The notes under the pieces were generated by a model. That model had not been told where the DNA came from. It worked only from the letters and a program-made list of their open reading frames with translations, and ran no database searches. A program made the translations under genes and the position numbers. Below are positions 17,409 through 39,474 of a DNA stretch of 39,474 nucleotides, in pieces (the first letter of the stretch is position 1; every line of letters begins with the position of its first letter). Source of the DNA: a phage; sequence record PZ618369.1. One strand, 5' to 3'.

Positions 17409-18270
17409 GAAGAAGAAGATAGCTCTTGTTCTTGATGGTGACTATCTGGTCTTCTCTTCTATGGCTGCTGCCGAGGACGAGACAGATTGGGGCGATGACA
17501 TCTGGACCCTTATCTGCGACCACGAGAAGGCTCGCCGTATACTTGAGAACACCATCGCTGAAATCGTTAAGAAGCGCAAGGCGTGGAAAGACGCTAAGAT
17601 TGTGATGTGCTTTACTGACGATAATAACTGGCGTAAGGACGTGCTTCCTACCTATAAGGCCAACCGTAAAGGTTCTCGCAAGCCTGTAGGTTACAAGAAG
17701 TTCGTAGCCGAAGTGATGGCTGACCAACGGTTCAACAGCTTCCTTCGTCCTACGCTTGAGGGTGATGACTGTATGGGTATCATCGGGACCCGACCTCAGA
17801 TTGTCGGATGTGACCATGCGGTTCTGGTGTCCTGTGACAAGGACTTCAAGACCATCCCGAACTGTGAGTTCTTCTGGTTAACAACTGGTGAAATCCTGAG
17901 TCATACGACTGCCGAGGCAGACTACTGGCACATGGAGCAGACCATCAAGGGCGACACTACAGATGGCTACGGTGGTATTCCGGGGATGGGTGAGGACACC
18001 ACTCGTGCGTTCCTTGACGAGCCGTACTACTTCGTGCAGGAGAGCCGTGAGCTTAAGACTGGTAAGAACAAAGGCCAGATTAAGACTGAGTGGAAGAAGT
18101 ATCCTAAGCGTGAAGACATGACGCTGTGGGACTGCATGGTGACTCTGGCTGCTAAAGCTGGGATGACCGAGGAGGAACTTCTGGTCCAAGCTCAGGTAGC
18201 TCGTATTTGTCGAGCATCTGACTATGACCCTAAGTCCAAGGAGGTCATCCTGTGGACACCATCCATGTAA
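17398..18270 (+). CDS. 6: 5'-3' exonuclease (290 aa)
   Basis: CDKDFKTIPNC and TIKGDTTDGYGGIPG match recalled T7 gp6. Confidence 0.93.
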   Translation: MGAEKKKIALVLDGDYLVFSSMAAAEDETDWGDDIWTLICDHEKARRILENTIAEIVKKRKAWKDAKIVMCFTDDNNWRKDVLPTYKANRKGSRKPVGYKKFVAEVMADQRFNSFLRPTLEGDDCMGIIGTRPQIVGCDHAVLVSCDKDFKTIPNCEFFWLTTGEILSHTTAEADYWHMEQTIKGDTTDGYGGIPGMGEDTTRAFLDEPYYFVQESRELKTGKNKGQIKTEWKKYPKREDMTLWDCMVTLAAKAGMTEEELLVQAQVARICRASDYDPKSKEVILWTPSM

Positions 18271-18398
18271 TTTACTGGGTCGGACTTCTGGCCCTTTACT
18301 GCATGTACAAGTGGTTTGGGTCAAACAACCGTCCTAAACACTGAGTCTAACCGATAGTCATATCCTATCAATCCAACAGTCATCCATAGGTGAAACAC

Positions 18399-18418
18399 TA
18401 AACTATCACTATAGGGAC
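18399..18418 (+). promoter_or_regulatory. phage RNAP promoter (phi6.5-type), TAAACTATCACTATAGGGA
   Basis: consensus match, +1 G near 18414. Confidence 0.8.
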
Positions 18419-18480
18419 TTTAGGACCTAAGATATGACTATAAGATAGACTTTAGTCTTAACTTAAAGAGGAGATTCAAG

Positions 18481-18753
18481 ATGGCGATTAATGCTATTGA
18501 AAACGTTGTTAAGCAGTTACAGGAAGAAAGGCTTGATGTCCCGAACATCTCCCAGTCTGCCATCCAGTTCCTGCACGTATTGTTCAACGCAAGCTACGCT
18601 GAGAAGATGGGAGCTATTAGTCTCCTCAAGCAGCAGGGCTACAGCGATGCGTTCATTGCTGGATTCATCAAGGGTCTCCAGTATTGCTCTGACACTCTCG
18701 ACGCTGCGATTGCTATGCGTCGTGAGCTGAAAGATACCGTTCAGTTTGATTAA
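18481..18753 (+). CDS. hypothetical protein at gene 6.5 position (90 aa)
   Basis: ORF track; synteny only. Confidence 0.6.
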   Translation: MAINAIENVVKQLQEERLDVPNISQSAIQFLHVLFNASYAEKMGAISLLKQQGYSDAFIAGFIKGLQYCSDTLDAAIAMRRELKDTVQFD

Positions 18754-18767
18754 CTGTAGGAGGGACT

Positions 18768-18992
18768 ATGTGTTTCAGTCCAAAGATTAGCACTCCGAAG
18801 CCTTCGGTCCAAGCGCCTGAACCAGCACCTCTGAGTGAGGAAGTTGCGTCAGTTGACATCGGGGCTGAATCGGATGTGGATACCAACGAGACCAAAGGTA
18901 TCAAAGACCTGAAGGTCAAGAAGGAGTCTGCACCTAAAGACAAATCGTCAGTAAGTCGCGCGATGCGTAACTCTGGCGTCAACATGGGGTAA
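18768..18992 (+). CDS. 6.7: gp6.7-like virion protein
   Basis: N-terminal MCFSPKISTPKP matches recalled T7 gp6.7 MCFSPKIKTPK. Confidence 0.8.
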   Translation: MCFSPKISTPKPSVQAPEPAPLSEEVASVDIGAESDVDTNETKGIKDLKVKKESAPKDKSSVSRAMRNSGVNMG

Positions 18993-18996
18993 GACA

Positions 18997-19401
18997 ATGC
19001 TGCCATATCTAAACTCACGCGAAGGTCGCCACATGTGCGCTTGTCGCCTCTGGGAAGACGGTCAGTCTAACTTCAAGTCATTCGAGGACTTCAAGGCTCA
19101 TACTTACCGTATGGCTGACGAGTTCGATGGTGAAGAGTACACAATCTACGATGTCTCAGGTCAACCAGTAGCGTACATCTACATGCTGGCTACCGCATCT
19201 TGGCACCGACCGACTCCCGGTCTTGACCTTTCAATCGTCGCCATTCGTCGTGACTCGCAGTCCTCCCGCAAGGTTCTTGAGACTGTCAGGCACATCGTAA
19301 ACGAAGAGTGCAAGCGTTGGGGTCTTGGCTGGTATTCTCGTGTCAAGCATGTTTCTGGGTCGGTAGACATCGTAACAACTAAGGAGATTAACCGTGGGTA
19401 A
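18997..19401 (+). CDS. hypothetical protein at gene 7 position (134 aa)
   Basis: ORF track; synteny only. Confidence 0.5.
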   Translation: MLPYLNSREGRHMCACRLWEDGQSNFKSFEDFKAHTYRMADEFDGEEYTIYDVSGQPVAYIYMLATASWHRPTPGLDLSIVAIRRDSQSSRKVLETVRHIVNEECKRWGLGWYSRVKHVSGSVDIVTTKEINRG

Positions 19402-19642
19402 ATCAATCAGTAAGGCTTTCAAGAAAGTAGTAAAAGGTGCGTTAGGGACAGTTGGTCTTGGAGCTAAGGAAGCACCTAAGGTTGTTGAGGCTCAGACCCC
19501 AGCAGCGCCAGTGGAAGTCCCGAACGACAAAGTGGAAGATGTGGATACTGAAGTGACCGCATCCGACGAGAAGAAAGTGAAGCGTTCCGGTAAGCGTAGC
19601 CTTCAGGTCTCTCGCACCTCTGGTGGCGGTATTTCTATTTAA
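19394..19642 (+). CDS. 7.3: gp7.3-like tail/host-range protein
   Basis: MGKSISKAFKKVVKG... and C-terminal SGKRSLQVSRTSGGGISI match recalled T7 gp7.3. Confidence 0.8.
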   Translation: MGKSISKAFKKVVKGALGTVGLGAKEAPKVVEAQTPAAPVEVPNDKVEDVDTEVTASDEKKVKRSGKRSLQVSRTSGGGISI

Positions 19643-19653
19643 GGAGGTGACGA

Positions 19654-21222
19654 ATGGCTGAACGTGAAGGGTTCGCTGCTGAAGGAGCCAAAGCGGTCTA
19701 TGACCGACTGAAGAACGGTAGACAGCCATATGAGACACGCGCTCAGAACTGTGCTGCTGTCACTATCCCGTCACTGTTTCCTAAGGAGTCCGACAACTCG
19801 TCCACTGAGTACACAACTCCGTGGCAAGCTGTGGGCGCTCGCTGCTTGAACAACTTGGCTGCAAAGCTGATGTTGGCATTATTCCCTCAGTCACCGTGGA
19901 TGCGACTGACAGTATCCGAATATGAGGCCAAGACCTTGAGTCAGGACTCAGAGGCGGCTGCTCGTGTTGACGAAGGGCTGGCTATGGTCGAGCGTGTGTT
20001 GATGGCCTACATGGAGACTAACAGTTTCCGAGTCCCATTGTTCGAGGCGCTGAAGCAGCTTATCGTCTCAGGTAACTGCCTGCTCTACATCCCTCCACCA
20101 GAACAAGGAACATACAGTCCTATGCGAATGTACCGCTTAGTGTCATACGTTGTTCAACGTGATGCTTTCGGTAACATCTTACAGATTGTGACTCTCGACA
20201 AGGTAGCGTTTAGTGCTCTACCGGAAGACGTGAAGTCTCAACTAAACGCAGACGACTATGAGCCTGACACAGAGCTGGAAGTGTATACGCACATTTACCG
20301 TCAGGACGACGAGTATCTGCGCTACGAGGAAGTGGAAGGTATTGAGGTAGCAGGGACCGAGGGTTCTTACCCACTGACTGCATGTCCGTACATCCCAGTA
20401 CGAATGGTTCGACTGGATGGTGAAGACTATGGTCGTTCTTACTGCGAGGAGTATCTGGGAGACCTGAACTCGCTGGAGACGATTACAGAAGCTATCACCA
20501 AAATGGCTAAGGTAGCCTCCAAGGTGGTGGGCCTCGTTAACCCGAACGGTATCACGCAACCTCGTCGTCTGAATAAGGCGGCTACAGGTGAGTTCGTGGC
20601 TGGTCGAGTTGAGGACATCAACTTCCTGCAACTGACGAAGGGTCAGGACTTTACGATTGCCAAGTCGGTGGCTGACGCTATCGAGCAACGTTTAGGCTGG
20701 GCCTTCCTTCTTAATAGTGCTGTTCAGCGTAATGCCGAGCGTGTCACTGCTGAAGAGATTCGTTATGTTGCTGGCGAACTGGAGGCGACCTTAGGTGGCG
20801 TGTACTCGGTACAGTCACAAGAGCTTCAGTTGCCTATAGTCCGTGTGCTGATGAACCAGCTTCAGTCTGCTGGCATGATTCCAGACCTTCCGAAAGAAGC
20901 GGTAGAGCCTACGGTATCCACTGGTCTGGAAGCGTTAGGTCGTGGTCAGGACTTGGAGAAGCTAACTCAGGCGGTTAACATGATGACTGGTCTTCAGCCG
21001 CTATCTCAGGACCCTGACATCAACTTGCCGACCCTTAAGCTGCGACTCCTGAACGCTCTGGGTATCGACACAGCTGGCCTACTCCTTACGCAAGACGAGA
21101 AGATTCAGCGCATGGCTGAGCAGTCGTCTCAACAGGCAGTTGTCCAAGGTGCTAGTGCTGCTGGTGCCAACATGGGTGCTGCTGTAGGTCAGGGAGCTGG
21201 TGAGGACATGGCTCAAGCCTAA
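19654..21222 (+). CDS. 8: portal (head-to-tail connector) protein
   Basis: RLKNGRQPYETRAQNCA, YRLVSYVVQRDAFGN and VRMVRLDGEDYGRSY match recalled T7 gp8. Confidence 0.97.
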   Translation: MAEREGFAAEGAKAVYDRLKNGRQPYETRAQNCAAVTIPSLFPKESDNSSTEYTTPWQAVGARCLNNLAAKLMLALFPQSPWMRLTVSEYEAKTLSQDSEAAARVDEGLAMVERVLMAYMETNSFRVPLFEALKQLIVSGNCLLYIPPPEQGTYSPMRMYRLVSYVVQRDAFGNILQIVTLDKVAFSALPEDVKSQLNADDYEPDTELEVYTHIYRQDDEYLRYEEVEGIEVAGTEGSYPLTACPYIPVRMVRLDGEDYGRSYCEEYLGDLNSLETITEAITKMAKVASKVVGLVNPNGITQPRRLNKAATGEFVAGRVEDINFLQLTKGQDFTIAKSVADAIEQRLGWAFLLNSAVQRNAERVTAEEIRYVAGELEATLGGVYSVQSQELQLPIVRVLMNQLQSAGMIPDLPKEAVEPTVSTGLEALGRGQDLEKLTQAVNMMTGLQPLSQDPDINLPTLKLRLLNALGIDTAGLLLTQDEKIQRMAEQSSQQAVVQGASAAGANMGAAVGQGAGEDMAQA

Positions 21223-21238
21223 ACTATCACTATAGGAA
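21219..21238 (+). promoter_or_regulatory. phage RNAP promoter (phi9-type), TAAACTATCACTATAGGA
   Basis: consensus match; followed by a 12-bp-stem hairpin (AACAACACAACC ... GGTTGTTGTGTT) in the leader. Confidence 0.75.
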
Positions 21239-21330
21239 CAACACAACTTGAGTGAGTGAACGCATAGCCAGCCGTAATGGGAGGGCAGGTTGTTGTGTTT
21301 CCCTATTAACTACCAAAGGAGAATGACTCA

Positions 21331-22215
21331 ATGTCTCAATCAGTTTATGCCGAGTTCGGCGTTAGCTCTAATGCAATCACTGGTTCCGTTGAGGACCTGA
21401 ACGAACACCAGAAGTCTATGCTTGAACAGGACGTAGCTGTTCGTGATGGCGACGACGCTATTACCTTCAAGCAACTGGAAGCCGAAAACGAAGAGGCGAC
21501 CGAAGAAGACGAGAACGTCGAAGAGACTGAAGGTGAAGAAGACCACGAGTCAGATGACGAAGAGTCTGAGACAGATGGTGAGCAGCCTGAGTTCATCGAA
21601 CTAGGTGATGCACCAAAAGAGCTGACTGAAAGTGTCACCGCTCTGGATGAAAACGAAGCTGCATTCGACGACATGGTGTCTTCTGCTGTAGAAGCTGGCA
21701 AGGTCACTGCTGATGAAATTACCGCTATCAAGGCTGAATACGCCAAGGACGGTAAGCTGTCTGACGCATCCTACGCTAAGTTGCAGGAAGCAGGCTACAC
21801 CAAGCGTTTCGTAGATTCGTTTGTCCGTGGTCAGGAAGCTCTTGCTGAACAGTATGCTGCTGGTGTGGTTCGCTACGCTGGTGGTGCTGAACAGTTTAAC
21901 CGCATCCTGTCACACCTTGAGTCCAACGACCCGTCAACTCGTGAAGCACTGGAAGCTGCTATCGTTCGTAAGGACATTGCTACTACCAAAGCTCTGCTGA
22001 ATCTGGCTGGCAAGACTCTGGGTAAAGCTGTTGGTGTTAAACCTCAGCGTACCATCACCACTCAGGCTAAACCTGTGGTCACACCTAAGGCTCCTCAGGC
22101 CGAAGCATTCAGCTCTAAGGCTGACATGATTAAGGCTATGAGTGACCCGCGATACCTGCGCGACACTAAATACACGATGGAAGTTCGCGCTAAGGTAGCT
22201 GCCTCAAGCCTGTAG
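21331..22215 (+). CDS. 9: capsid assembly (scaffolding) protein
   Basis: very acidic 294-aa protein immediately upstream of the major capsid gene. Confidence 0.9.
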   Translation: MSQSVYAEFGVSSNAITGSVEDLNEHQKSMLEQDVAVRDGDDAITFKQLEAENEEATEEDENVEETEGEEDHESDDEESETDGEQPEFIELGDAPKELTESVTALDENEAAFDDMVSSAVEAGKVTADEITAIKAEYAKDGKLSDASYAKLQEAGYTKRFVDSFVRGQEALAEQYAAGVVRYAGGAEQFNRILSHLESNDPSTREALEAAIVRKDIATTKALLNLAGKTLGKAVGVKPQRTITTQAKPVVTPKAPQAEAFSSKADMIKAMSDPRYLRDTKYTMEVRAKVAASSL

Positions 22216-22218
22216 GAC

Positions 22219-22240
22219 TAAACTATCACTATAGGGAGAC
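22219..22240 (+). promoter_or_regulatory. phage RNAP promoter (phi10-type), full consensus TAAACTATCACTATAGGGAGA
   Basis: only copy with the full GGGAGA start; transcript begins GGGAGACC...GGTTTCCC, which can form a 5' hairpin as in T7 phi10. Confidence 0.85.
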
Positions 22241-22341
22241 CAAGAGACAGACTCAAGGTTTCCCTATTACTTCAGTCCATACGGATTGGGCATACAGTAA
22301 GTAATAAACTTTATCTTTCAATTGAATAGGAGAATTATCAT

Positions 22342-23385
22342 ATGGCAAACGTTCCGGGTCAGAAAATTGGTACAGACCAAGGTAAAGGCAAATCCAGCTC
22401 CGACGCTCTTGCGTTGTTCCTGAAGGTATTTGCTGGTGAAGTCCTGACCGCATTCACTCGCCGCTCTGTAACTGCTGACAAGCATATTGTCCGTACCATT
22501 CAGAACGGTAAGTCTGCTCAGTTCCCGGTCATGGGTCGCACCTCCGGTGTGTATCTGGCTCCGGGTGAGCGACTGTCCGATAAACGTAAAGGTATCAAAC
22601 ATACCGAGAAAGTGATTACCATTGATGGTCTGCTGACTGCCGATGTGATGATTTTCGACATTGAAGACGCGATGAACCACTATGACGTGGCTGGTGAGTA
22701 TTCCAACCAGTTGGGTGAAGCTCTGGCTATCGCTGCCGATGGTGCGGTTCTGGCTGAAATGGCTATCCTGTGTAACCTCCCATCCGCATCCAACGAGAAC
22801 ATCGCGGGTCTGGGTACCGCGTCCGTACTGGAAGTTGGTAAGAAAGCTGACCTCGACACACCAGCTAAACTGGGTGAGGCAATCATCGGTCAACTGACCA
22901 TTGCTCGTGCGAAGCTGACCTCCAACTACGTTCCTGCTGGCGACCGTTACTTCTACACCACGCCGGACAACTACTCTGCAATCCTCGCGGCTCTGATGCC
23001 GAACGCTGCTAACTATGCTGCGCTGATTGACCCAGAGACTGGTAACATCCGTAACGTTATGGGCTTCGTTGTTGTTGAAGTTCCGCATCTGGTTCAGGGC
23101 GGTGCTGGTGAGACTCGTGGTGAAGATGGTATCTCTATCGCTTCCGGTCAGAAACACGCATTCCCGGCGACTGCTGCTGGCGACGTTAAAGTTGCTATGG
23201 ATAACGTTGTGGGTCTGTTCTCTCACCGTTCTGCTGTGGGTACTGTGAAGCTGCGTGATTTGGCGCTGGAACGTGACCGTGACGTCGATGCTCAGGGTGA
23301 CCTGATTGTTGGTAAGTACGCTATGGGTCACGGTGGTCTTCGTCCTGAAGCGGCTGGCGCACTGGTTTTCAGCTCAGCGGCGTAA
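22342..23385 (+). CDS. 10A: major capsid protein 10A (347 aa)
   Basis: GKSAQFPVMGRT, KHTEKVITIDGLLTADVMIFDIEDAMNHYDV and AMGHGGLRPEAAGA match recalled T7 gp10A. Confidence 0.97.
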   Translation: MANVPGQKIGTDQGKGKSSSDALALFLKVFAGEVLTAFTRRSVTADKHIVRTIQNGKSAQFPVMGRTSGVYLAPGERLSDKRKGIKHTEKVITIDGLLTADVMIFDIEDAMNHYDVAGEYSNQLGEALAIAADGAVLAEMAILCNLPSASNENIAGLGTASVLEVGKKADLDTPAKLGEAIIGQLTIARAKLTSNYVPAGDRYFYTTPDNYSAILAALMPNAANYAALIDPETGNIRNVMGFVVVEVPHLVQGGAGETRGEDGISIASGQKHAFPATAAGDVKVAMDNVVGLFSHRSAVGTVKLRDLALERDRDVDAQGDLIVGKYAMGHGGLRPEAAGALVFSSAA

Positions 23386-23516
23386 GCACCTTTAGCCAAC
23401 CTAACGTCGCTACAGTAGCGGCTGCACCTGAAGAGGAGACTCTAACTCCTCAACAGAAAGCTGCGCGTACTCGTGCTGCGAACAGGGCCGCTAAACTGGC
23501 TGAGTCAAACAACTAA
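22342..23516 (+). CDS. 10B: minor capsid protein 10B by programmed -1 frameshift (predicted)
   Basis: heptamer GGTTTTC at 23364-23370 as in T7 gene 10 as recalled; the -1 frame is open for 48 codons to TAA at 23514-23516 (translated by hand, no stops). Confidence 0.6.
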
Positions 23517-23520
23517 TTGA

Positions 23521-23558
23521 AACCCCTTGGGTGCCTTCGGGTGCTTGAGGGGTTTTTT
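23521..23558 (+). terminator. intrinsic terminator (T-phi equivalent)
   Basis: CCCCTTGGGTGCC-TTCG-GGTGCTTGAGGGG followed by TTTTTT; a 13-bp stem with several G-U pairs and a UUCG loop. Confidence 0.8.
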
Positions 23559-23579
23559 GCTTAAAGTGAGAGGAGACTT

Positions 23580-24146
23580 ATGGCTCAATACATTCCACTG
23601 AATGCTAACGATGACTTAGATGCCATCAACGATATGTTAGCCGCTATCGGTGAACCAGCAGTCCTACAGCTTGACGAGGGGAACGCTGACGTCTCGAACG
23701 CTCTACGTATCCTGCATCGCGTCAATCGTCAGGTCCAAGCTAAAGGCTGGAACTTTAACATCAACGAAGCAGCTGTCCTGACACCTGACATCCAAGACAA
23801 TAGGATTCGATTCTTGCCGTCATACCTTCGTGTAATGACCGCTGGGGCCACCAGCTACTACAGCAACATGGGTGGGTACCTGTACGACCTGTCCACCCAG
23901 TCAACCACTTTCACCGACCCTATCACGGTAGAGCTTGTGGAGATGAAGCCATTCTCCGAGATGCCTGTGGTCTTCAGGGACTACATCGTAACTAAAGCTA
24001 GCCGTGAGTTCAACGCTAAGTTCTTCGGTAGCCCAGAGTCAGAGCTATACCTTCGTGAGCAGGAAGCAGAACTCTATCAGCAGGTTATGGAGTACGAGAT
24101 GGACACTGGTCGCTACAACATGATGTCTGACATCGGGAGGGACTAA
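23580..24146 (+). CDS. 11: tail tubular protein A
   Basis: synteny and size (188 aa); first gene after the terminator. Confidence 0.85.
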   Translation: MAQYIPLNANDDLDAINDMLAAIGEPAVLQLDEGNADVSNALRILHRVNRQVQAKGWNFNINEAAVLTPDIQDNRIRFLPSYLRVMTAGATSYYSNMGGYLYDLSTQSTTFTDPITVELVEMKPFSEMPVVFRDYIVTKASREFNAKFFGSPESELYLREQEAELYQQVMEYEMDTGRYNMMSDIGRD

Positions 24147-24373
24147 TGGCTAGTCACAACCTGAAGATTCACCGCCAGCACTTTGGTCCGGTACAGCTAG
24201 GTCTAAAGACAGCAGAGCTGAGACTTAACGACCGGGACTTTAAGGTTGGCGATTGGCTTATCCTGAATGAATGGGACAACGGGTATACTGGACAACAGGT
24301 AGCACGTAAGGTTGTCCACATTGCTGACGTTGGTGACATCGCTGAGGGATACGTTCTAATGAGTATGATTTAA
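24146..24373 (+). CDS. ASCH/PUA-like (DUF3850-like) small protein (75 aa) inserted between genes 11 and 12
   Basis: HNLKIHRQHFGPVQLGLKTAELRLNDRDFKVGDWLILNEWD...YTG fits my recollection of the DUF3850 signature; ATG overlaps the gene 11 stop. Confidence 0.55.
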   Translation: MASHNLKIHRQHFGPVQLGLKTAELRLNDRDFKVGDWLILNEWDNGYTGQQVARKVVHIADVGDIAEGYVLMSMI

Positions 24374-24382
24374 GGAGGGCCT

Positions 24383-26740
24383 ATGCCGCTAATTACTCAA
24401 TCAATCAAGAACCTTAAAGGCGGCATTAGCCAGCAGCCTGACATACTGAGGTTCTCAGACCAAGGCGAGGCACAGATTAACTGCTGGTCATCCGAGAGTG
24501 ATGGCCTCCAGAAGCGCCCACCTACAGTCTTCAAGCGCCGACTTAACATCGACGTGGGGAGCAACCCTAAGTTCCACCTTATTAACCGTGACGAGCAGGA
24601 GCAGTATTATATCGTATTCAATGGGTCCAACATTCAGGTAGTTGACTTGAGTGGTACTCAATACCCAGTGTCAGGTGCAGTAGACTACGTTAAGTCATCC
24701 AACCCACGGGATGAAATCCGTGTCGTTACCGTGGCAGACTATACGTTCGTAGTTAACCGTAAGGTTGTCGTCAAAGGTGGAAGCGAGAAGTCACACTCTG
24801 GCTATAACCGCAAAGCACGAGCTTTAATTAACCTTCGCGGTGGACAGTACGGTAGAACCCTTAAGGTTGGAATCAACGGAGGAGTCAAGGTCTCGCATAA
24901 GCTACCAGCAGGTAATGATGCCGAGAATGACCCACCTAAGGTTGACGCTCAGGCCATAGGTTCAGCTCTGAGAGACCTTCTTGTTGCTGCCTATCCAGAC
25001 TTCACGTTCGACCTTGGGTCTGGCTTCCTGTTAATCACGGCCCCTTCAGGGACTGACATTAACTCAGTAGAGACGGAGGATGGCTACGCTAACCAGCTAA
25101 TCAGCCCAGTCCTAGACACAGTGCAGACAATCTCTAAGTTGCCTCTTGCTGCCCCTAATGGATATATCATTAAGATTCAGGGTGAGACCAACAGTAGCGC
25201 TGATGAATATTACGTGATGTATGACTCCAACACTAAGACTTGGAAGGAGACAGTGGAGCCGGGAGTGGTCACTGGGTTCGATAATGCAACAATGCCACAT
25301 GCTCTGGTGCGACAAGCTGATGGCTCCTTTGAGTTCAAGACGCTGGAATGGTCTAAGCGTGGTGCTGGTAATGACGACACAAACCCTATGCCTAGCTTCG
25401 TGGATGCTGTGATTAACGATGTGTTCTTCTACAGGAACAGACTTGGGTTCTTGTCAGGAGAGAACGTAATCATGAGCCGTTCAGCCAGCTACTTTTCGTT
25501 CTTCCCTAAGAGTGTGGCGACATTGAGTGATGATGATCCTATTGACGTAGCTGTAAGTCACCCTAGAATCTCAATCCTTAAGTATGCCGTTCCGTTTAGC
25601 GAGCAGCTACTACTTTGGTCAGATGAGGTGCAGTTCGTGATGACAAGCTCAGGGGTCCTTACCTCGAAGTCTATCCAGCTTGATGTAGGCTCAGAGTTTG
25701 CCTTAGGTGATAATGCCAGACCGTTCGCTGTAGGACGCTCAGTCTTCTTCTCAGCGCCTCGTGGGTCATTCACCAGCATTAAGCGATACTTCGCTGTAGC
25801 AGATGTGTCTGACGTGAAGGATTCTGATGATATCACGGGCCACGTGCTGTCCTATATCCCTAACGGGGTGTTTGACATTCACGGAACAGGGACTGAGAAC
25901 TACATCTGCGTCAACTCTACAGGTGCTTACAACCGAATCTACATCTACAAGTTCTTGTTTAAGGACGGCGTACAGCTTCAAGCCTCTTGGTCGCACTGGG
26001 AGTTCCCTAAAGCTGATAAGATTCTGGCGTCTGCGTCGATTGGCTCTACCATGTTCATTGTTCGTCAGCACCAAGGCGGCGTAGACCTTGAGCACCTTAA
26101 GTTCATCAAGGAGGCAACTGACTTTCCATTAGAGCCATATAGACTCCACGTTGACTCCAAGGTGTCTATGGTAATCCCAATTGGCTCATATAACGCTGAC
26201 ACCTATAAGACTACGGTCGACATCGGTTCTGCTTATGGTGGAAACGCTCCGTCTCCCGGTCGGTACTATCTGATTGACAGTCAGGGTGCCTATGTGGACC
26301 TTGGTGAATTGACCGACATCTCAACTGTGGTTATGCTCAATGGCGATTGGTCGGGACGTACAGTGTTCATCGGACGGTCTTATCTGATGTCCTACAAGTT
26401 CTCACGGTTCCTGATTAAGATTGAAGACGAGAGCGGCACTCAGTCTGAGGACACTGGACGTCTACAACTTCGTAGGGCTTGGGTCAACTACAAGGACACT
26501 GGCGCTCTTAGACTCATTGTCAGAAATGGTGAGCGGGAGTTCGTGAACACCTTTAATGGGTACACCCTTGGTCAGCAAACCATCGGTACTACAAACATTG
26601 GTGACGGGCAGTATCGCTTCGCCATGAATGGTAACGCATTAACCACGAGTCTAACCTTAGAGTCCGACTATCCTACCCCAGTGTCCATCGTTGGGTGTGG
26701 CTGGGAGGCGTCATACGCTAAGAAAGCTCGTTCCGTCTAA
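24383..26740 (+). CDS. 12: tail tubular protein B
   Basis: synteny and size (785 aa vs 794 in T7). Confidence 0.9.
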   Translation: MPLITQSIKNLKGGISQQPDILRFSDQGEAQINCWSSESDGLQKRPPTVFKRRLNIDVGSNPKFHLINRDEQEQYYIVFNGSNIQVVDLSGTQYPVSGAVDYVKSSNPRDEIRVVTVADYTFVVNRKVVVKGGSEKSHSGYNRKARALINLRGGQYGRTLKVGINGGVKVSHKLPAGNDAENDPPKVDAQAIGSALRDLLVAAYPDFTFDLGSGFLLITAPSGTDINSVETEDGYANQLISPVLDTVQTISKLPLAAPNGYIIKIQGETNSSADEYYVMYDSNTKTWKETVEPGVVTGFDNATMPHALVRQADGSFEFKTLEWSKRGAGNDDTNPMPSFVDAVINDVFFYRNRLGFLSGENVIMSRSASYFSFFPKSVATLSDDDPIDVAVSHPRISILKYAVPFSEQLLLWSDEVQFVMTSSGVLTSKSIQLDVGSEFALGDNARPFAVGRSVFFSAPRGSFTSIKRYFAVADVSDVKDSDDITGHVLSYIPNGVFDIHGTGTENYICVNSTGAYNRIYIYKFLFKDGVQLQASWSHWEFPKADKILASASIGSTMFIVRQHQGGVDLEHLKFIKEATDFPLEPYRLHVDSKVSMVIPIGSYNADTYKTTVDIGSAYGGNAPSPGRYYLIDSQGAYVDLGELTDISTVVMLNGDWSGRTVFIGRSYLMSYKFSRFLIKIEDESGTQSEDTGRLQLRRAWVNYKDTGALRLIVRNGEREFVNTFNGYTLGQQTIGTTNIGDGQYRFAMNGNALTTSLTLESDYPTPVSIVGCGWEASYAKKARSV

Positions 26741-26747
26741 CTTATTG

Positions 26748-26797
26748 AAGGGCCTATAGATTTACCTTAACTATCACTATAGGGACTATAGGCCCTT
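26748..26797. repeat. perfect 12-bp inverted repeat (AAGGGCCTATAG / CTATAGGCCCTT) bracketing the phi13 promoter
   Basis: read directly from sequence; 26-nt spacer contains the promoter. Confidence 0.6.
26767..26786 (+). promoter_or_regulatory. phage RNAP promoter (phi13-type), TTAACTATCACTATAGGGA
   Basis: consensus match, +1 G near 26782. Confidence 0.8.
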
Positions 26798-26816
26798 AAG
26801 GTTATAAGGAGACTTT

Positions 26817-27287
26817 ATGTATATTCGCAAGGCTACGGAACCAGATGTCCAATACTTTCTGTGGCATCTTTCAGCAGATGATGTTAATGAGTGCAAAGCA
26901 AACTATGGGTCAACAGTTGGTCTCTCTGAAAGACTGCTTAAGCACCTATCTCCGTCATCTGTGGTTTTAACGAACGGTGTAGGCGAACACTTCGCCTATG
27001 GTGGAAACCAAGGGGACAACGTATGGTTCTTGACTTCCGGTCTGGTCCACAAGCTGAGACCTAAAGAGAAGCGAGAGTTCATAAAGCGTATCTCTGAGTA
27101 CAGGGACTTAATGTTAGACCAATACGGGACCATCTGGAACTACGTGTGGTCAGGCAATAAGTCTCACATTAAATTCTTGAAGTTACTTGGGGCTAAGTTC
27201 CATGATGATTGGACTATCAGCCCGGTAACTGGTGAGCGTTTTCAATTATTCACTATCTCTAAGGGGGACGTATGTGTGAACCCGTAA
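26817..27287 (+). CDS. 13: internal virion protein A
   Basis: synteny and size (156 aa). Confidence 0.7.
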   Translation: MYIRKATEPDVQYFLWHLSADDVNECKANYGSTVGLSERLLKHLSPSSVVLTNGVGEHFAYGGNQGDNVWFLTSGLVHKLRPKEKREFIKRISEYRDLMLDQYGTIWNYVWSGNKSHIKFLKLLGAKFHDDWTISPVTGERFQLFTISKGDVCVNP

Positions 27288-27859
27288 GTATCGGCATGGG
27301 TATCATGGCTGTAGCCGGGGCCACTATGTCCGCATCCCAACAGGCCAAGGCCGAAGGTGCAGCAATTGACGCTCAGAACCGACAGGCTCAGGAAATGGTT
27401 AAGCAGATGAACTACTCTGACGCCAACCTGAAGATGCAGGAGCGCGACCTGAAGGAGCAGCAGATGGCTGAACTGACAGAGACCACGCTTAACGGTATCC
27501 GCAATCAGGGTATGGTCCGAGCTGCGGTGGCTGAGTCCGGTCTGGAAGGTAACTCTATGGACAGGATTGAACGTCAGGTCGAAGGAGATACAGTCAAGGA
27601 GCGAGCAGGGATTACCGAAAGTTACAACCGCGACTATGCGGCTATCTTCGGGAACCGTATAGCCAACATTGAGAACACCAAGTCTGCTATTCGTGGTCAA
27701 GGTAAAATCATCAAGACTAGCCCACTGGCTCATGCACTTAATGTTGCTAACGCCGGGATGCAGGGATACGCTGCTGGTAAGTCAATCTCTGGGGCATCAA
27801 GCTCTGGTGGTTCTGCACCGATTAGTGCTGCTAAAGGCACACCTACAGGTCATAGCTAA
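27272..27859 (+). CDS. 14: internal virion protein B
   Basis: MCEP...SMDRIERQVEGDTVKE...NRDYAAIFG resembles recalled T7 gp14 (MCWAA...SMDRIKRVTEGQ...RRDYQAIFA). Confidence 0.8.
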   Translation: MCEPVSIGMGIMAVAGATMSASQQAKAEGAAIDAQNRQAQEMVKQMNYSDANLKMQERDLKEQQMAELTETTLNGIRNQGMVRAAVAESGLEGNSMDRIERQVEGDTVKERAGITESYNRDYAAIFGNRIANIENTKSAIRGQGKIIKTSPLAHALNVANAGMQGYAAGKSISGASSSGGSAPISAAKGTPTGHS

Positions 27860-27870
27860 GAGGAGGACTA

Positions 27871-30153
27871 ATGGCTAGTAATATTGAATCAGCTCTGGCT
27901 AATCGGACTATGGGTCGTGGCAGAGCTCCGGGTAAAACTATCGCCGTCAACTATCAAGCAGCCAGCGTTCAGGCTCCGACTGGTGACTCCGGTCTGGCTC
28001 GTGCATTAACCAACTTCGTTGAGTCTGGGACTGGATTGTACAAGCAGTTCAAAGACGAGGAGAAGACACGGGCCGACGAGCGGTCTAACGAGATTATCCG
28101 TAAGCTGACACCTCAGCAAAGACGTGAGGCTATCCAGAACGGCACACTGCTGTATCAGGACGACCCTTACGCTATGGAAGCACTTCGAGTCAAGACTGGA
28201 CGTAACGCTGCCTTTGCGGTGGATGACGAGATTAACGTTAAGATTCAGAATGGTGAGTTCCGCACACGTCAGGAAATGGAAGAATATCGCCACCAGCGAC
28301 TTCAAGACGCAGCTAAGTCCTATGCTGAAGAGGCTGGTATTAACCCTACCGATGAGTTCTTCCAGCGAGGGTTCAACGATAACATCACAGACCGCAACAT
28401 CGCTATCTATGGGTCCTTCAATAAGTATTTCAGTAAGCAGTCTGAAGAGACAGCAATGTTGAATACTCGTATTGAGATGAACTCATTCCTGAACGATGGA
28501 GACCTGATGCGTTCACCTGAGTCAGGTAAGACCTTCATGGCCTACCTTCGTGATGGACTGACTACTGCTGCTATCCCTTCGGACCAGCGAGCACGGGAGG
28601 TAATTACCCAGACGGTCCGTGACGCAATCCAGAAGTCTGGTGGCTCAAACTTCCTACAGCAAGTACGAGGCGAGCGAATCACACTTAACGGTGTGGATGC
28701 TACAGTCGAAGAGATTGTAGGACCTGACGTCTTCAATGCTGCTATGGTAGAGGCTCAAGGCACTGAGTACAAACTGGTGGCTAAATATCAGGAAGACTTA
28801 GCGCTTGGAGTTCAGTCTGCTATTCTTCAGGATGACCCAACCATCGGTCTGGCCCAGATTCAGAAGCTCAAGGAGCAGAACAACCTGCTTCAACCGGGTG
28901 AAGAACTCACACCTCAGCGTCAGATGCTTATTAATGCCGAAGCCAGCCTACTGGAAGCGGTCAAGCGTAAGTCTGCTGAACAGGCAAAAGAGAACACTAA
29001 GTTAATCCAGACTCAGAACAAGCAACTGGTCATCGACCAAGTGTATCAGCGACGTCTGGCTGGGGACAACGTGTCAACCAACTATGAGGACCTTCCTGTC
29101 TCTGAGGCTACAGGAGAGTTCAAACGTTCAGACATGAACAACTATGCGTCTGCCAAGCTACAGCAGATTGACCAGATGGACATCCCTGAGGCAGCTAAGG
29201 ACGCTCAGAAGGTGGCATTGTTAAGAGCTGACACTAACAACGGTCCGTTCCGTAATGCCTTCCAGACGCTGACTCAGGACGCTGCTGGTGAGTGGCAAGC
29301 TGCTGTCATCCGTGGACAGTACGACCCAGACAAGATGCAACGCTTCGAGTCTCTTCGTCGTGCCTACACTCAGGACCCTTCAAGTTTCGCTGCTCTGTAT
29401 CCTGACCAAGCTCAGTTGTTCTCTACGTTCGACCAGATGGACAAGATGGGTCTGGACCCTCAGACGATGATTGAAGCTGATAAGCAAGCTGCAAGTCAAA
29501 GCCGTGAGATGCGCATGGAGTCAGACAAGGCGTGGCAGGAGTTGAAGAACGACTCCAAGAACACCCAGTTGTCTCGTCTCCCAACGTCTCTTGACTCAAG
29601 TGCTCGTAAGGTCTGGGACTCATGGTACTATCGTACAGGTAACGCTGACGCTGCAACTCAGCAGACTCAACGCTGGCTGAATGAAAATACCGTAACGTTC
29701 CAGTCTGAAGGCTCTGACGGTAAGTCCATCGGCATGGTGTCAAAGCACCAGCTTATGGTTGGGGATAACCCAGAGTCGTGGCAGGTTGGTCGAGACATTA
29801 TCGACACAGCTCGTCAGCAGCTCATTAAGGCCAACCCTTGGGTAGTGAACTCTCAGTTGTCAGTTGTTGAGCAGAACGGCTCTATCTTCCTCCAAGACGC
29901 TACAGGGACTATTCGTATTCGCTACGATAAAGAACTTGTAGGTAAACTCTACCGTGAACAACAGCAGAAGGCACAAGATGCCGCATACGCTCAGGCAGAA
30001 CGTGACGCTAACAAGCGAGCGCGTATCGTCGGGACTAAAGCTGCTGGTGACAAACGTCGAGCTGACCGAGAGGCCACCATCGAGAAGCGCGGAGGGATGT
30101 ACAATGACGTCTCATTGGAGGGTATCGCAAACGTACTAATCGGTAAGGAGTAA
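27871..30153 (+). CDS. 15: internal virion protein C
   Basis: synteny and size (760 aa vs 747 in T7). Confidence 0.8.
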   Translation: MASNIESALANRTMGRGRAPGKTIAVNYQAASVQAPTGDSGLARALTNFVESGTGLYKQFKDEEKTRADERSNEIIRKLTPQQRREAIQNGTLLYQDDPYAMEALRVKTGRNAAFAVDDEINVKIQNGEFRTRQEMEEYRHQRLQDAAKSYAEEAGINPTDEFFQRGFNDNITDRNIAIYGSFNKYFSKQSEETAMLNTRIEMNSFLNDGDLMRSPESGKTFMAYLRDGLTTAAIPSDQRAREVITQTVRDAIQKSGGSNFLQQVRGERITLNGVDATVEEIVGPDVFNAAMVEAQGTEYKLVAKYQEDLALGVQSAILQDDPTIGLAQIQKLKEQNNLLQPGEELTPQRQMLINAEASLLEAVKRKSAEQAKENTKLIQTQNKQLVIDQVYQRRLAGDNVSTNYEDLPVSEATGEFKRSDMNNYASAKLQQIDQMDIPEAAKDAQKVALLRADTNNGPFRNAFQTLTQDAAGEWQAAVIRGQYDPDKMQRFESLRRAYTQDPSSFAALYPDQAQLFSTFDQMDKMGLDPQTMIEADKQAASQSREMRMESDKAWQELKNDSKNTQLSRLPTSLDSSARKVWDSWYYRTGNADAATQQTQRWLNENTVTFQSEGSDGKSIGMVSKHQLMVGDNPESWQVGRDIIDTARQQLIKANPWVVNSQLSVVEQNGSIFLQDATGTIRIRYDKELVGKLYREQQQKAQDAAYAQAERDANKRARIVGTKAAGDKRRADREATIEKRGGMYNDVSLEGIANVLIGKE

Positions 30154-30157
30154 CATA

Positions 30158-33100
30158 ATGGCGACTCGTGGTATTCGCAATAACAATCCGGGTAACATCC
30201 GGGTAAGTAAGGACCAATGGGAAGGAATGACTGGGGATGATGGTGCATTCGTCACCTTTGATAGTCCAGAGTCTGGCGTCCGAGCTTTAGGTAAAAACCT
30301 GCTGTCCTACGGTCGCCAAGGTTATGACTCCATCGAGAAGATTATCAACAGATGGGCTCCTCCTAACGAGAACGACACTCAGGCTTATATTGACTCTGTG
30401 GTGGCTGCGACTGGTATTCCAGCTACCCAGAGTCTCGACCTCTCGAACCCGGACACCCTGTCTTCTCTGGCTCAAGCTATCAGCTTCCATGAGACAGGCT
30501 CCCGGTACAATCCTGAAGTATATCAGAAGGGAGTCGCACGAGCACTAAACGGTATCAGCCCAAAGACTCCACCAGTAAGCGCTAACGTATTTGACGCACT
30601 CACGGAAGGACTCAAGGCTAAACCTAAAGTAGCTCTGGGAGGGAACCTTCCGACCGCTGCTGGTCTGAACATTGAGGGTCAAGCACCTGAAGCTCCAAAC
30701 GAATCGTTCGGTGAGATGTTCTATAAGGCTACTGGCGAGACAATGCAGGAACGAGAGGACCGCTCTACGTGGTTCGGTTTCGGTGCTGCTACAGAAGCTG
30801 AAGTGAAGAACTCTATGGTCGGCGTGGCTATCCGCGCTGGTCAGACCGAGGACTCACTTGATGTAATTGGCGATGTGTTCAACCCGACCCGCTGGAACAA
30901 CCATAAGTGGACTCGTGATGAGCTGGACCAGATTCGTAACGCTGGGGTTCTGCCTCAGTATTACGGAGTCATTACTGGTGGCTCTCCTCAGAACCTGACC
31001 GAGCTGATTAACTTGGCGCTTGAGAACCAGAAGTTGGATCAAGAGAAGGCCAAGGCCGGGATTGGTGCTCAGTTAGCTGCTGGCGTGATTGGTGCTGGTG
31101 TAGACCCGCTGACCTACGTTCCTATCGCTGGACAGGTTGGTAAAGGTGGTAAGCTGGTCAACAAGATGTTCACCGTGGCTGCTCAATCTGGAGCGCTGGC
31201 TGGTGTGTCTGAGATGGCTCGTACCTCAGTGGCTGGCGGTGATGCTCATGTGGCTGAAGCTATCCTCGGAGGTGCTCTCTTCGGTGGCGGAATGACCGCT
31301 ATCGCTGACGGCTTAGGAAGAGCCTTAGGTCGCAACACTAACGAGTTCGCTGGCCCGGCTACACGTCTGGAAGCTCGTGAGACTGCTCGTAACGTTGATG
31401 GTCAGGACCTGTCTCGTCTCCCTATTCAGGAAGGTGAGCAGACCTTTAGTCATCAAGGCGTTAAGTTCGCTGACGTTCAGAATGAGCCGGGTAGTGTACG
31501 ACTGGAGGATGGTTCAATCCTGATTGGTGAGAACCCTCTGAACCCTAAGACACGTCAGGTCTTTGACGAAGTGATTGAGCCTGAACGTGCAGCCGCTGGT
31601 GTGAACCTTGGTGGGCTGACTGAGATTGGACTGAAGCTGCTTCGGTCCGAGAACCCTGAGATTCGCGGAGTCGCTGCTGACTTAGTGCGTTCACCGACTG
31701 GTATGCAGTCAGGAGCCTCAGGTAAAATTGGGACCACTGCGTCAGACGTGTTCGAGAGACTTCGTGCTGTGGACCATCGGTTCTACAACGACATCGACGA
31801 TGCTGTTACTGAGGCACTCAAGGACCCCTACTTCCAGACAGCATTCTGGCGAGACTCTGGCGCATTCCGTCAGGACATCTACCAGCGTGTGTCTATGGCT
31901 ATTGAAGATGGCAGTGGGAACCTGAAGGCTGAACTGACTCCGGGAGAACTGAAAGTCTATGGCCTGCTGAAGAATCAGTTTGACGCAAAGCGTGAGATGA
32001 TGGAGAACCCAGCTATGTTTGGTCGTCCAGACGCTAAGTCTATCTTCCCCGGCAGTCGCTTCAAGGGAACCTACGTCCCGCATGTGTATAGCAATCAGAT
32101 GAAGGAGCTGTACATCAAGGAGCTTGGAAGCCCAGAGGCACTACAGGAGGCCATCAAGAAGTCATGGTTGACCAGCTATGCGTCTCGACCTGAAGTCAAG
32201 AAACGTGTGGACGAGGCACTCTTAGAGGCTGACCCTACGTTGACTGCAGATGGACTTGCGGCTGCGGTCGATAAGTACGCTAACGATAAGGCTTACGGTA
32301 TCTCTCACACCGAGCAGTTCGAACGTTCATCCGTAATGGAAGAGAACATCAATGGTCTGGTGGGTCTGGAGAACAACAGCTTCCTTGAGGCTCGTAACCT
32401 GTTCGATAGCGACATGTCAATCGTCTTACCTAACGGTCAGACCTTCAGTGTCAACAATCTGCGTGAGTGGGACATGGATAAGATTGTCCCTGCTTATAAC
32501 CGTCGAGTTAATGGTGACATTGCTATCATGGCTGGTACAGGAAAGACTACGAAGGACATGAAGGACTTGGTTGAGACCTTGATGAACAAGGCTGGGGATG
32601 ACGGTAAGTTGAAAGGTGAAGTATCTACCTTACGTGACACCCTGAAGATTCTAACTGGTCGTGCTCGACGTGATGGCGCTGATGATGCGGCCTTCGCTAC
32701 CGTGATGCGCACGATGACAGACCTATCGTTCTTCGCTAAAAATGCCTACATGGGTGTGCAGAACTTAACGGAGATTGGTGGTATGCTGGCTCGTGGTAAC
32801 GTTCGTGCATTGCTACATGGAGTTCCTATGTTCCGTGACCTAGCCTTCCGTAACAAGAAGGTAGGGGCCTCAGAGATTAAGGACCTGCACAATGTTATCT
32901 TCGGTAAGGAACTGGATGACTCAATCCGTCCGTCTAAACAGGATGTCATCGACCGTCTGCGGTCTTACAGTGACCTAGGTCGTGGTGCAGCCACAGCTCT
33001 GGGGACTGCCAAGTATTACACTGGTGAACTTGCAGTACGCTCGCCGTTCACTAAAGTCCTCAACGGTACGACAAACTACCTGTTAGATGCTGGACGTCAA

Positions 33101-34045: not shown

Positions 34046-34062
34046 ACTATCACTATAGGAAA
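34043..34062 (+). promoter_or_regulatory. phage RNAP promoter (phi17-type), TAAACTATCACTATAGGA
   Basis: consensus match, +1 G near 34058; leader contains hairpin GGAGAC...GTCTCC. Confidence 0.75.
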
Positions 34063-34108
34063 CGGAGACGCTACCATAGGTCTCCATTTAAATCACAAAG
34101 GAGGCATA

Positions 34109-36295: not shown

Positions 36296-36412
36296 GAGTG
36301 AGAACGAAAGTCGAAACAGAACTGTGGTTGTGGAGGTAGAGGTTGACTACACGCTGACCAACGCATGTAATAACTTTGGGTCACGGACGACCCGCTTTAA
36401 ACTGGAGGTTTT

Positions 36413-39178: not shown

Positions 39179-39275
39179 CTGAATGAATAACTATAGGAGA
39201 AAGCTGCATGAATACGCAGTTAGTACCCTATAGTTACTACCAGTCTAACCTACTGTTTTACAAGGAGTTTGGACT

Positions 39276-39294
39276 TAACTATCACTATAGGGAA
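39276..39294 (+). promoter_or_regulatory. phage RNAP promoter (right-end phiOR-type), TTAACTATCACTATAGGGAAGA
   Basis: consensus match, +1 G near 39290; downstream of gene 19. Confidence 0.7.
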
Positions 39295-39474
39295 GACCCC
39301 CGGTTACTTATAGTATTACTGTAGTGAATATACATATGCAGACTTTATGCAAGACCTTAGGAGGCAGACTCCGAGTTCTTACCTAAGGCTTGCACCGATG
39401 GAAGGAGGGTGATATTAATCATAATCCCTCCAATACAGATAGTAAAGACCATAGATACAGGAGGTATGTAGCAT

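Follow-up and report, generated by a model that had tools for sequence, protein, structure and literature searches.

We analysed a small gene lying between the two tail tubular genes of a phage genome, sequence record PZ618369.1, whose full 39,474 nucleotides we refer to as the window. The window is a complete K1F-like genome (Autographiviridae, Studiervirinae, Kayfunavirus), and in a 1.5-kb query around the gene Klebsiella phage SEA1f shares 99% identity with it and numerous phages of Escherichia and Salmonella share 94-98%. The gene, an ATG-to-TAA open reading frame (ORF), encodes a 75-amino-acid member of the DUF3850 family (MASHNLKIHRQHFGPVQLGLKTAELRLNDRDFKVGDWLILNEWDNGYTGQQVARKVVHIADVGDIAEGYVLMSMI) and separates gene 11 from gene 12, a place where phage T7 has only a 23-nucleotide gap. 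A preliminary description, made from the letters of the window, had pointed out both the absence of a T7 counterpart and the ORF itself; its coordinates, 75 codons and translation were reproduced here. The features of the locus are as follows.

24146-24373, plus strand: DUF3850 gene ('11.05/11.5'), 75 amino acids, 8.5 kDa, pI 6.4; coordinates include the stop codon.
24135-24148, plus strand: ribosome-binding site GGGAGGGA and TAATG stop/start overlap, read directly from the sequence.
24203-24238, plus strand: conserved core G19-L-K21-T-A-E24-L-R26-L-N28-D29-R30 (ASCH octapeptide and NDR loop), presumed ligand pocket, from residue conservation.
24374-24385, plus strand: spacer with the gp12 Shine-Dalgarno sequence AGGAGG (24373-24378) and the gp12 start codon (24383-24385), from a four-phage alignment (window, K1F, EcoDS1 and the metagenomic contig L007) and nine junctions without the gene.
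23580-24146, plus strand: gp11, tail tubular protein A or adaptor, the upstream neighbour; 99% identical to EcoDS1 gene 11, its L007 counterpart matching Pfam 'Tube'.
24383-26740, plus strand: gp12, tail tubular protein B or nozzle, the downstream neighbour; 97% identical to EcoDS1 gene 12, its L007 counterpart matching Pfam Phage_nozzle.
23519-23562, plus strand: Tphi-like terminator hairpin and U-run upstream of gene 11, from a terminator scan and RNA folding.
22219-22237, plus strand: phage RNA-polymerase promoter phi10, the nearest upstream of the DUF3850 gene, by consensus match.
26767-26785, plus strand: phage promoter phi13, the next one downstream, by consensus match.

A genuine, late-expressed gene

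Length alone makes this ORF unremarkable, as the window holds dozens of spurious ORFs that long. Its product matched the Pfam profile DUF3850 (PF12961) with 70.1 bits (E 1.9e-19; residues 4-73 on profile positions 2-76 of 77) and the profile ASCH (PF04266; PUA-like clan) with 26.2 bits, both above the curated gathering cut-offs of 22.9 and 21.2 bits, so that the family named in the preliminary description proved correct. PHROG 986 was matched as well (2.8e-35). The ratio of non-synonymous to synonymous substitution (dN/dS; Nei-Gojobori, 16 related loci) was 0.147, compared with 0.033 for gp11 and 0.050 for gp12; purifying selection thus acts on the gene, more weakly than on its tail-gene neighbours. 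Together with the record of an identical 75-amino-acid protein on 378 public contigs, the Pfam and PHROG matches and the dN/dS identify the ORF as a real gene. Domain searches of the protein returned only DUF3850 and ASCH and none of the nuclease domains HNH, Endonuclease_7, GIY-YIG or LAGLIDADG, a search of NCBIfam gave no match, and the PADLOC-DB defence models gave only a marginal partial match to PDC-M07B (E 0.0073, 14 bits). An antisense ORF of 56 amino acids lies inside the gene (24169-24339, minus strand), and nothing points to its expression or to conservation of its own.

The final A of the gp11 stop codon TAA (24144-24146) is also the first base of the DUF3850 start codon (24146-24148); this TAATG overlap implies translational coupling to gp11 and is kept in EcoDS1, K1F, L007 and Citrobacter phage CR44b. 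The Shine-Dalgarno sequence GGGAGGGA stands at 24135-24142, five bases upstream, and at the other end the first base of the gp12 Shine-Dalgarno sequence is the last base of the DUF3850 stop codon. A phage-promoter consensus derived from the EcoDS1 annotation (TAAACTATCACTATAGGGA) had 10 matches in the window against 0.01 expected; phi9 (21220) and phi6.5 (18399) lie further upstream than phi10, and the scan found no phage promoter between 22,237 and 26,767. The terminator ahead of gene 11 belongs to a region (23500-23580) with a minimum free energy of -28.9 kcal/mol over all 81 nucleotides, a value that includes a 17-bp stem (z -3.4), and a terminator is annotated at the equivalent place in EcoDS1 and T7. 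Because no phage promoter separates Tphi from phi13, genes 11, DUF3850 and 12 are predicted to depend for their transcription on polymerase that starts at phi6.5, phi9 or phi10 and reads through Tphi, giving class III late messages. Scans for sigma-70 promoters and for terminators other than Tphi stayed at chance level, and an Rfam search of 23300-24600 gave a sub-threshold snoRNA match and no RNA element.

Presence and absence in related phages

Type phage K1F lacks the DUF3850 gene, its gp11 stop overlapping its gp12 start. The segment absent from K1F comprises 237 bp, window bases 24149-24385: GGGAGGGACTAATG is followed by GCTAGT... in the window and directly by CCGCT... in K1F, and at the far junction of the window AAGGAGGGCCTATG precedes CCGCT. 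Two similar ribosome-binding-site/ATG elements flank the segment. A whole-genome comparison showed no other indel in the late block 17413-34744, where the window and K1F are ~94-95% identical.

A search with the K1F junction, in which the 60 best records were sorted as interrupted or uninterrupted, returned 26 uninterrupted records from ~21 distinct phages, among them ZG49, YZ1, Zappy, SR04, Pipis, IME177, pO2, R1 and ST1749. The other 34 mostly carried the 237-bp segment, with a larger insert in Hafnia phage yong1 and a remnant in two records of Kayfunavirus LI10P1. Since many viable sister phages precisely lack it, the gene is dispensable, and all nine junctions sequenced from phages without the gene were identical. 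Nor is the gene rare: ~181 phage records hold a copy of at least 60% identity, as against ~225 records in which the junction region is at least 80% identical, a share of roughly four in five. It is moreover already annotated in GenBank and RefSeq Kayfunavirus records, as 'hypothetical', 'DUF3850 domain-containing' or 'RNA-binding', including copies 100% identical to ours. To call such a gene unexpected at this place, as the preliminary description did, was an overstatement.

Three annotated counterparts, AS9_0040 of EcoDS1, PE3_037 of PE3-1 and 11.05 of CR44b, share with the window gene its place between genes 11 and 12, the TAATG coupling and the length of 75 amino acids. The first two are 100% identical to the window protein and are the same gene, whereas CR44b 11.05 (L101, 22053-22277) is 45% identical, compared with 81% for gp11 and 75% for gp12 of that phage. 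It lacks N28, D29 and R30, the loop being replaced by KTCDLRPSIPE, which suggests a relaxed or shifted function in the CR44b lineage.

The earlier suggestion of a moron acquired by horizontal transfer holds in part. The gene is accessory, being present in some and absent from other collinear close relatives, K1F and many sister phages included; it has no promoter or terminator of its own and so is not a classical moron. In neighbour-joining trees of gp11 and of the gp12 N-terminus (computed without support values), phages with and without the gene were interleaved and the two trees disagreed. Because of this disagreement and the lack of support values, single loss could not be separated from repeated loss. 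Two deep outgroups, L007 and L021 (whose copy, as in phage GA2A, is 85% identical), both carry the gene, and we hold loosely that it may be ancestral in the clade, its loss being secondary and either repeated or spread by recombination. Base composition gave no clear signal of recent transfer (GC 0.478 for the gene, 0.503 for the genome).

Where the DUF3850 gene meets gp12 there is a hot spot of indels and homing genes. Directly downstream of the gene, at a site corresponding to window 24374-24382, yong1 (L008, 990-1430) and phage KM02 carry a 146-amino-acid Endonuclease_7 gene (PF02945, 2.6e-20). In yong1 this is an ORF of its own, which the window lacks. At the same boundary lies the 158-amino-acid ORF41 of Enterobacter phage B1. 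LI10P1 (L009, ~748-877) retains an in-frame stump, MASHN followed by HETGEVRGLLCRHCNK..., left by a deletion between two CACAAC microhomologies that removed most of the DUF3850 gene and two thirds of the adjacent endonuclease VII gene. Spread of the DUF3850 gene by this neighbour is unlikely: among 40 matches the homing gene occurs as two full copies and two records of one remnant, which is too rare.

Similar elements occur elsewhere in these genomes. In EcoDS1 an endonuclease VII gene, 13.5 (L001, 6876-7277), lies between genes 13 and 14 and shares 46% identity with the homing gene of yong1; neither the window (26817-27287 and 27272-27859) nor K1F has it, gp13 directly overlapping gp14 in both. 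The K1F DNA polymerase gene carries a ~600-bp insertion with an HNH endonuclease (14935-15535), annotated as a joined coding sequence, and the window polymerase gene is uninterrupted at the corresponding point (16292-16294).

A second accessory locus, gene 0.3, varies independently. The window copy (1217-1669) encodes a T3-type S-adenosylmethionine lyase (PF23780, 3.1e-39) and K1F has an Ocr-like DNA mimic; a link between the gene 0.3 allele and the DUF3850 gene was rejected, as Ocr occurs in phages both with and without the latter.

Fold, conserved core and family

An AlphaFold2 model built on 22 homologues (mean predicted local distance difference test score 85) is a strand-helix-four-strand barrel, a confident PUA-like fold in agreement with the assignment to DUF3850/ASCH. 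It has the helix after strand 1 that marks ASCH within PUA-like beta-barrels, and it shares the fold of the solved DUF3850 representative, PDB 3IUW, a structural-genomics entry ('activating signal cointegrator' NP_814290) that differs in coming from a Gram-positive bacterium, Enterococcus faecalis V583, and in having 83 amino acids against 75. YTH and EVE readers were among the structural matches, ranked after the strongest ones. A sequence profile run against PDB reached neither YqfB nor any other characterised ASCH enzyme.

The octapeptide GxKxxExR, a name for the ASCH signature that reportedly goes back to Iyer et al. 2006, is present as G19-L-K21-T-A-E24-L-R26 and is followed by N28-D29-R30. 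ASCH proteins have been described as sharing a 'conservative octapeptide' (PMC9599836). In our alignment of 22 T7-type homologues, K21, T22, E24, R26, N28, D29 and R30 were invariant, the core motif holding in copies down to 47% identity. The K, E, R, D and R of the motif were invariant across 92 diverse family members; in 34 viral members K, R, N, D and R were invariant and E nearly so. Across the three alignments, which rise in diversity, K21, E24, R26, D29, R30, H4, D36, L40 and G49 were invariant or nearly so. The DUF3850 family core (H..LK, K-x-x-E-x-R-x-N-D-R, VGD and GYV) is complete in the window protein, and the motif aligns to 3IUW and to SGKKRIEVR of Pyrococcus PF0470. From this conservation we infer a polar pocket formed by H4, K21, E24, R26, N28-D29-R30, D36 and E42 and flanked by the aromatics F13, F32, Y47 and Y69.

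The family is very large. A word-indexed protein search gave only 31 close T7-type homologues, and an exhaustive profile search was chosen for that reason; it returned 16,078 clusters (50% identity) at E<=1e-3 and 5,282 at E<=1e-10. Among 92 long members, 12 carried DUF551 as an extra domain; other fused domains were a MazG-like dATP/dGTP pyrophosphohydrolase, helix-turn-helix (HTH) domains of the LexA, Crp or MarR type, the DnaA-C HTH and, in P2-like phages, DUF7415. In Clostridium phage Saumur, DUF3850 (E 1.7e-26, residues 392-465) is shared with the window protein as the C-terminal module of a 471-amino-acid, ParB-like CTP-binding protein that is encoded in a ParA/ParB operon with ParA adjacent, unlike the stand-alone domain in the tail operon of a lytic phage described here. 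A 2025 PNAS study found fusions of the ParB N-terminal (CTPase) domain to DUF3850 enriched in phages and prophages, showed that a tested phage fusion bound CTP, and singled them out as the only fusion type consistently next to parA (PMC12704722).

We then compared genomic settings across 80 IMG/VR loci and further collected loci. Only copies at least 69% identical to the window protein stood between gp11 and gp12 homologues, CR44b (45%) being a later exception; CR44b aside, all copies of 60% identity or less were in other settings. One neighbours P2 gene A and is close to a DNA methyltransferase and a gene with a ParB domain, the copy of Kagunavirus-like phages adjoins primase, and that of T1-like phages sits in the early region near polynucleotide kinase. 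A census of neighbours at 55 non-redundant viral loci listed Dam-type D12 methyltransferase, NinG, primase zinc fingers, HNH nucleases, Mu Gam, SNF2/DEAD helicases, RusA, NUDIX and DUF1064, together with one terminase small subunit and one holin; tail genes were not found among the immediate neighbours at these loci. Given these loci and the census, genes of replication, recombination and modification are the normal company of the family, and the Kayfunavirus tail-operon position is an exception. Outside T7-like phages the closest relatives, which reach 57-62% identity, are N-terminal domains of 138-148-amino-acid proteins in Kagunavirus and other enterobacterial siphophages, which fits a possible capture from a shared enterobacterial phage gene pool. 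What our comparison adds to the existing annotation is that the genus is polymorphic for the precise presence or absence of the gene, that the junction is a hot spot for indels and homing, and that the tail-operon site is atypical for this family.

Proposed role and alternatives

We read the DUF3850 gene, with a probability of about 0.6, as an accessory, non-structural late gene whose product is a minimal DUF3850/ASCH barrel that holds a nucleobase, and whose target belongs to host-phage conflict or to the metabolism of DNA or nucleotides, not to translation. By its sequence signals the gene is late and translationally coupled to gp11, and it is selectively maintained yet dispensable; its 75-amino-acid product would not be a tail building block. 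By analogy with other ASCH and PUA-clan modules, the conserved polar pocket may hold a base, either within a free nucleotide or flipped out of a DNA or RNA strand, and this base is probably modified. A target in DNA or nucleotide metabolism or conflict, in preference to translation, is suggested because family members elsewhere occur in modules of replication, recombination and methylase genes and carry fused ParB-CTPase, DnaA-type HTH and MazG-like domains. The position in the tail operon would probably mark an insertion-tolerant gene boundary and say little of function.

Precedents exist throughout the clan. ASCH domains have been predicted to read modified bases, being linked to N6A-methylases, and they act as modification sensors in type IV restriction enzymes; YTH, EVE and SRA domains also read modified bases (PMC4738411; PMC7641849). 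Pockets of the PUA/ASCH clan bind nucleotides, and one PUA-clan domain senses N6-methyl-dAMP (m6-dAMP) (bioRxiv 10.64898/2026.01.15.699771). Zymomonas ZmASCH binds nucleic acid in a cleft that contains a pocket (PMC5615036), and an ASCH-like protein is described in the literature as excising 5-hydroxymethylcytosine (5hmC). The window protein differs from YTH (which reads N6-methyladenosine), from EVE/SRA (5-methylcytosine/5hmC) and from the PUA-Cal-HAD sensor (m6-dAMP) in having no sequence similarity to them, and DUF3850 has no demonstrated aromatic cage.

Several points weigh against our reading. The pocket is drawn from residue conservation and not from coordinates, and the papers searched report no DUF3850 member with an activity or a ligand. 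The protein is slightly acidic (pI 6.4, net charge -1), a poor fit to general nucleic-acid binding, although this fits a specific pocket better than it would a surface that coats nucleic acid. Late expression is unusual for an otherwise early-region family, so that a role tied to tail or particle assembly is conceivable. The virion data considered below come from a diverged orthologue and from band-based methods able to miss an 8.5-kDa protein, and the trees have no bootstrap support while recombination is evident. Our literature survey of DUF3850 function, ASCH anti-defence factors and Kayfunavirus virion proteomics found no experiment on this gene.

It is rather unlikely that the protein is an enzyme and not a reader, that is, a minimal ASCH hydrolase acting on a modified nucleotide or nucleic acid, in nucleotide salvage during late DNA synthesis or in removal of a host mark. 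Models for such activity are the N-acyl-cytidine amidohydrolases YqfB and EOLA1, the single-stranded RNA (ssRNA) nuclease ZmASCH and the base-excising glycosylase BapA. The catalytic residues of YqfB are Lys21, Thr24, Arg26 and Glu74 (PMC9599836). The window protein retains Lys21 and Arg26, but by mapping from the motif, not by structural alignment, it has Glu24 in place of the YqfB nucleophile Thr24 and, stopping at residue 75, offers no clear counterpart of the acid Glu74; on this motif-based mapping we rejected a YqfB-type amidohydrolase. Compared with Escherichia coli YqfB (an N4-acetylcytidine amidohydrolase, 9KYF), ZmASCH (5GUQ) and Pyrococcus PH0355/PF0470, the protein is shorter (75 against 102-148 amino acids), lacks the C-terminal helices and has no significant sequence match. 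Nor does it have the helices that form the clefts of ZmASCH and BapA, proteins of at least about 143 amino acids, and sequence profiles reach no characterised enzyme.

Improbable, too, is the RNA-binding post-transcriptional regulator that the preliminary description had considered, which would act on late genes, for example by adjusting the ratio of gp11 to gp12 or the stability of late mRNA. The first role predicted for the PUA/ASCH superfamily was in RNA metabolism, ZmASCH binds ssRNA, PHROG 986 is labelled 'RNA-binding protein', and the gene sits within a late polycistronic mRNA, translationally coupled to gp11. However, the database label is a homology transfer through PHROG 986 and not an experiment, the protein is acidic and without basic cleft-forming helices, and Rfam found no structured RNA nearby (23300-24600). 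In addition, gp12 has a strong Shine-Dalgarno sequence of its own, phages that lack the gene couple gp12 directly to gp11 and apparently suffer no harm, and the family's contexts elsewhere are DNA replication, recombination and methylation, not translation.

We give a similarly small weight to a selfish passenger of little or no benefit to the phage, kept and spread by a recombination and homing hot spot, for example through co-conversion with the endonuclease VII gene. This view draws on the scatter of presence and absence over the discordant trees of the flanking genes, on the Endonuclease_7 gene directly downstream in yong1 and KM02 with its remnant in LI10P1, on the 158-amino-acid ORF of B1 at the same place, and on the loss of the conserved NDR residues in CR44b. 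Against it, dN/dS is 0.15, the 22 T7-type sequences keep the motif unchanged down to 47% identity, an intact copy stands in ~180 records, the homing gene is seldom present (two full copies and two records of one remnant in 40 matches), and DUF3850 has no nuclease motif of its own.

A counter-defence role, in which a stand-alone phage DUF3850 protein would be a decoy that sequesters or masks a modified base or nucleotide, is a long shot. One candidate ligand would be Dam-derived m6-dAMP freed as the T7-type nucleases gp3 and gp6 digest the host chromosome; if true, the decoy would blind host sensors of the PUA/ASCH clan such as PUA-Cal-HAD, or type IV modification-dependent nucleases. The Dam site GATC occurs 10 times in the whole window against 157 +/- 14 expected from dinucleotide-preserving shuffles, and avoidance of GATC is a known property of T7-like phages. 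The decoy is compatible with this near absence, with the PUA-clan pocket, with the links to Dam-type methylase and ParB in other phages, and with the pattern of presence and absence.

Virion data bear on a structural role. The GenBank notes on CR44b virion mass spectrometry record matches for gp7.3, 8, 9, 10A, 11, 12, 14, 15, 16, 17 and 17.01 and none for 11.05. Band-based mass spectrometry of Enterobacter phage B1 identified six structural proteins, and neither its 75-amino-acid ORF40 nor gp11 and gp12 were among them. The DUF3850 gene is absent from T7, from K1F and from at least 20 other Kayfunavirus isolates. Together, the mass-spectrometry notes and the tails built without the gene argue, though not conclusively, against a structural role. 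A tail-assembly chaperone or minor tail or virion component working with gp11 and gp12 is accordingly the least probable of the readings we weighed, given that T7, K1F and at least 20 other Kayfunavirus isolates build tails without the gene from gp11 and gp12 that are 95-99% identical, that CR44b virions yielded matches for gp11 and gp12 and none for 11.05, and that the strong matches are cytoplasmic ASCH proteins, the rest of the family never lying beside tail genes in the loci examined.

With the base-holding, non-structural module as the preferred reading, the location of the gene among tail genes leaves the view of T7-like phages unchanged. The interest lies in the family, which is very large, enriched in phages and prophages and represented by a solved structure. 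The Kayfunavirus copy is its minimal form, the domain alone in 75 amino acids, within a highly tractable phage group, and natural near-isogenic phages with and without the gene make the locus convenient for finding DUF3850 function.

Two further observations concern the window as a genome. Gene 17 (34109-36295) encodes a 728-amino-acid product with a T7-tail-fibre N-terminal domain followed by a Tail_spike_N (TSP1/Gp66-type) domain, and the C-terminal receptor-binding part of this tail spike (34745-36325) has no match in K1F, which carries an endosialidase; because of this mismatch and the domain make-up, capsule or O-antigen specificity probably differs from that of K1F. The record is also permuted relative to K1F. 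Its first ~580 bases (1-583, which we also compared with the window end, 39275-39474) match the K1F right end (39053-39704) and 406-1141 match the K1F left end (1-738), so that the record appears to start a few hundred bases ahead of the K1F-type left end.

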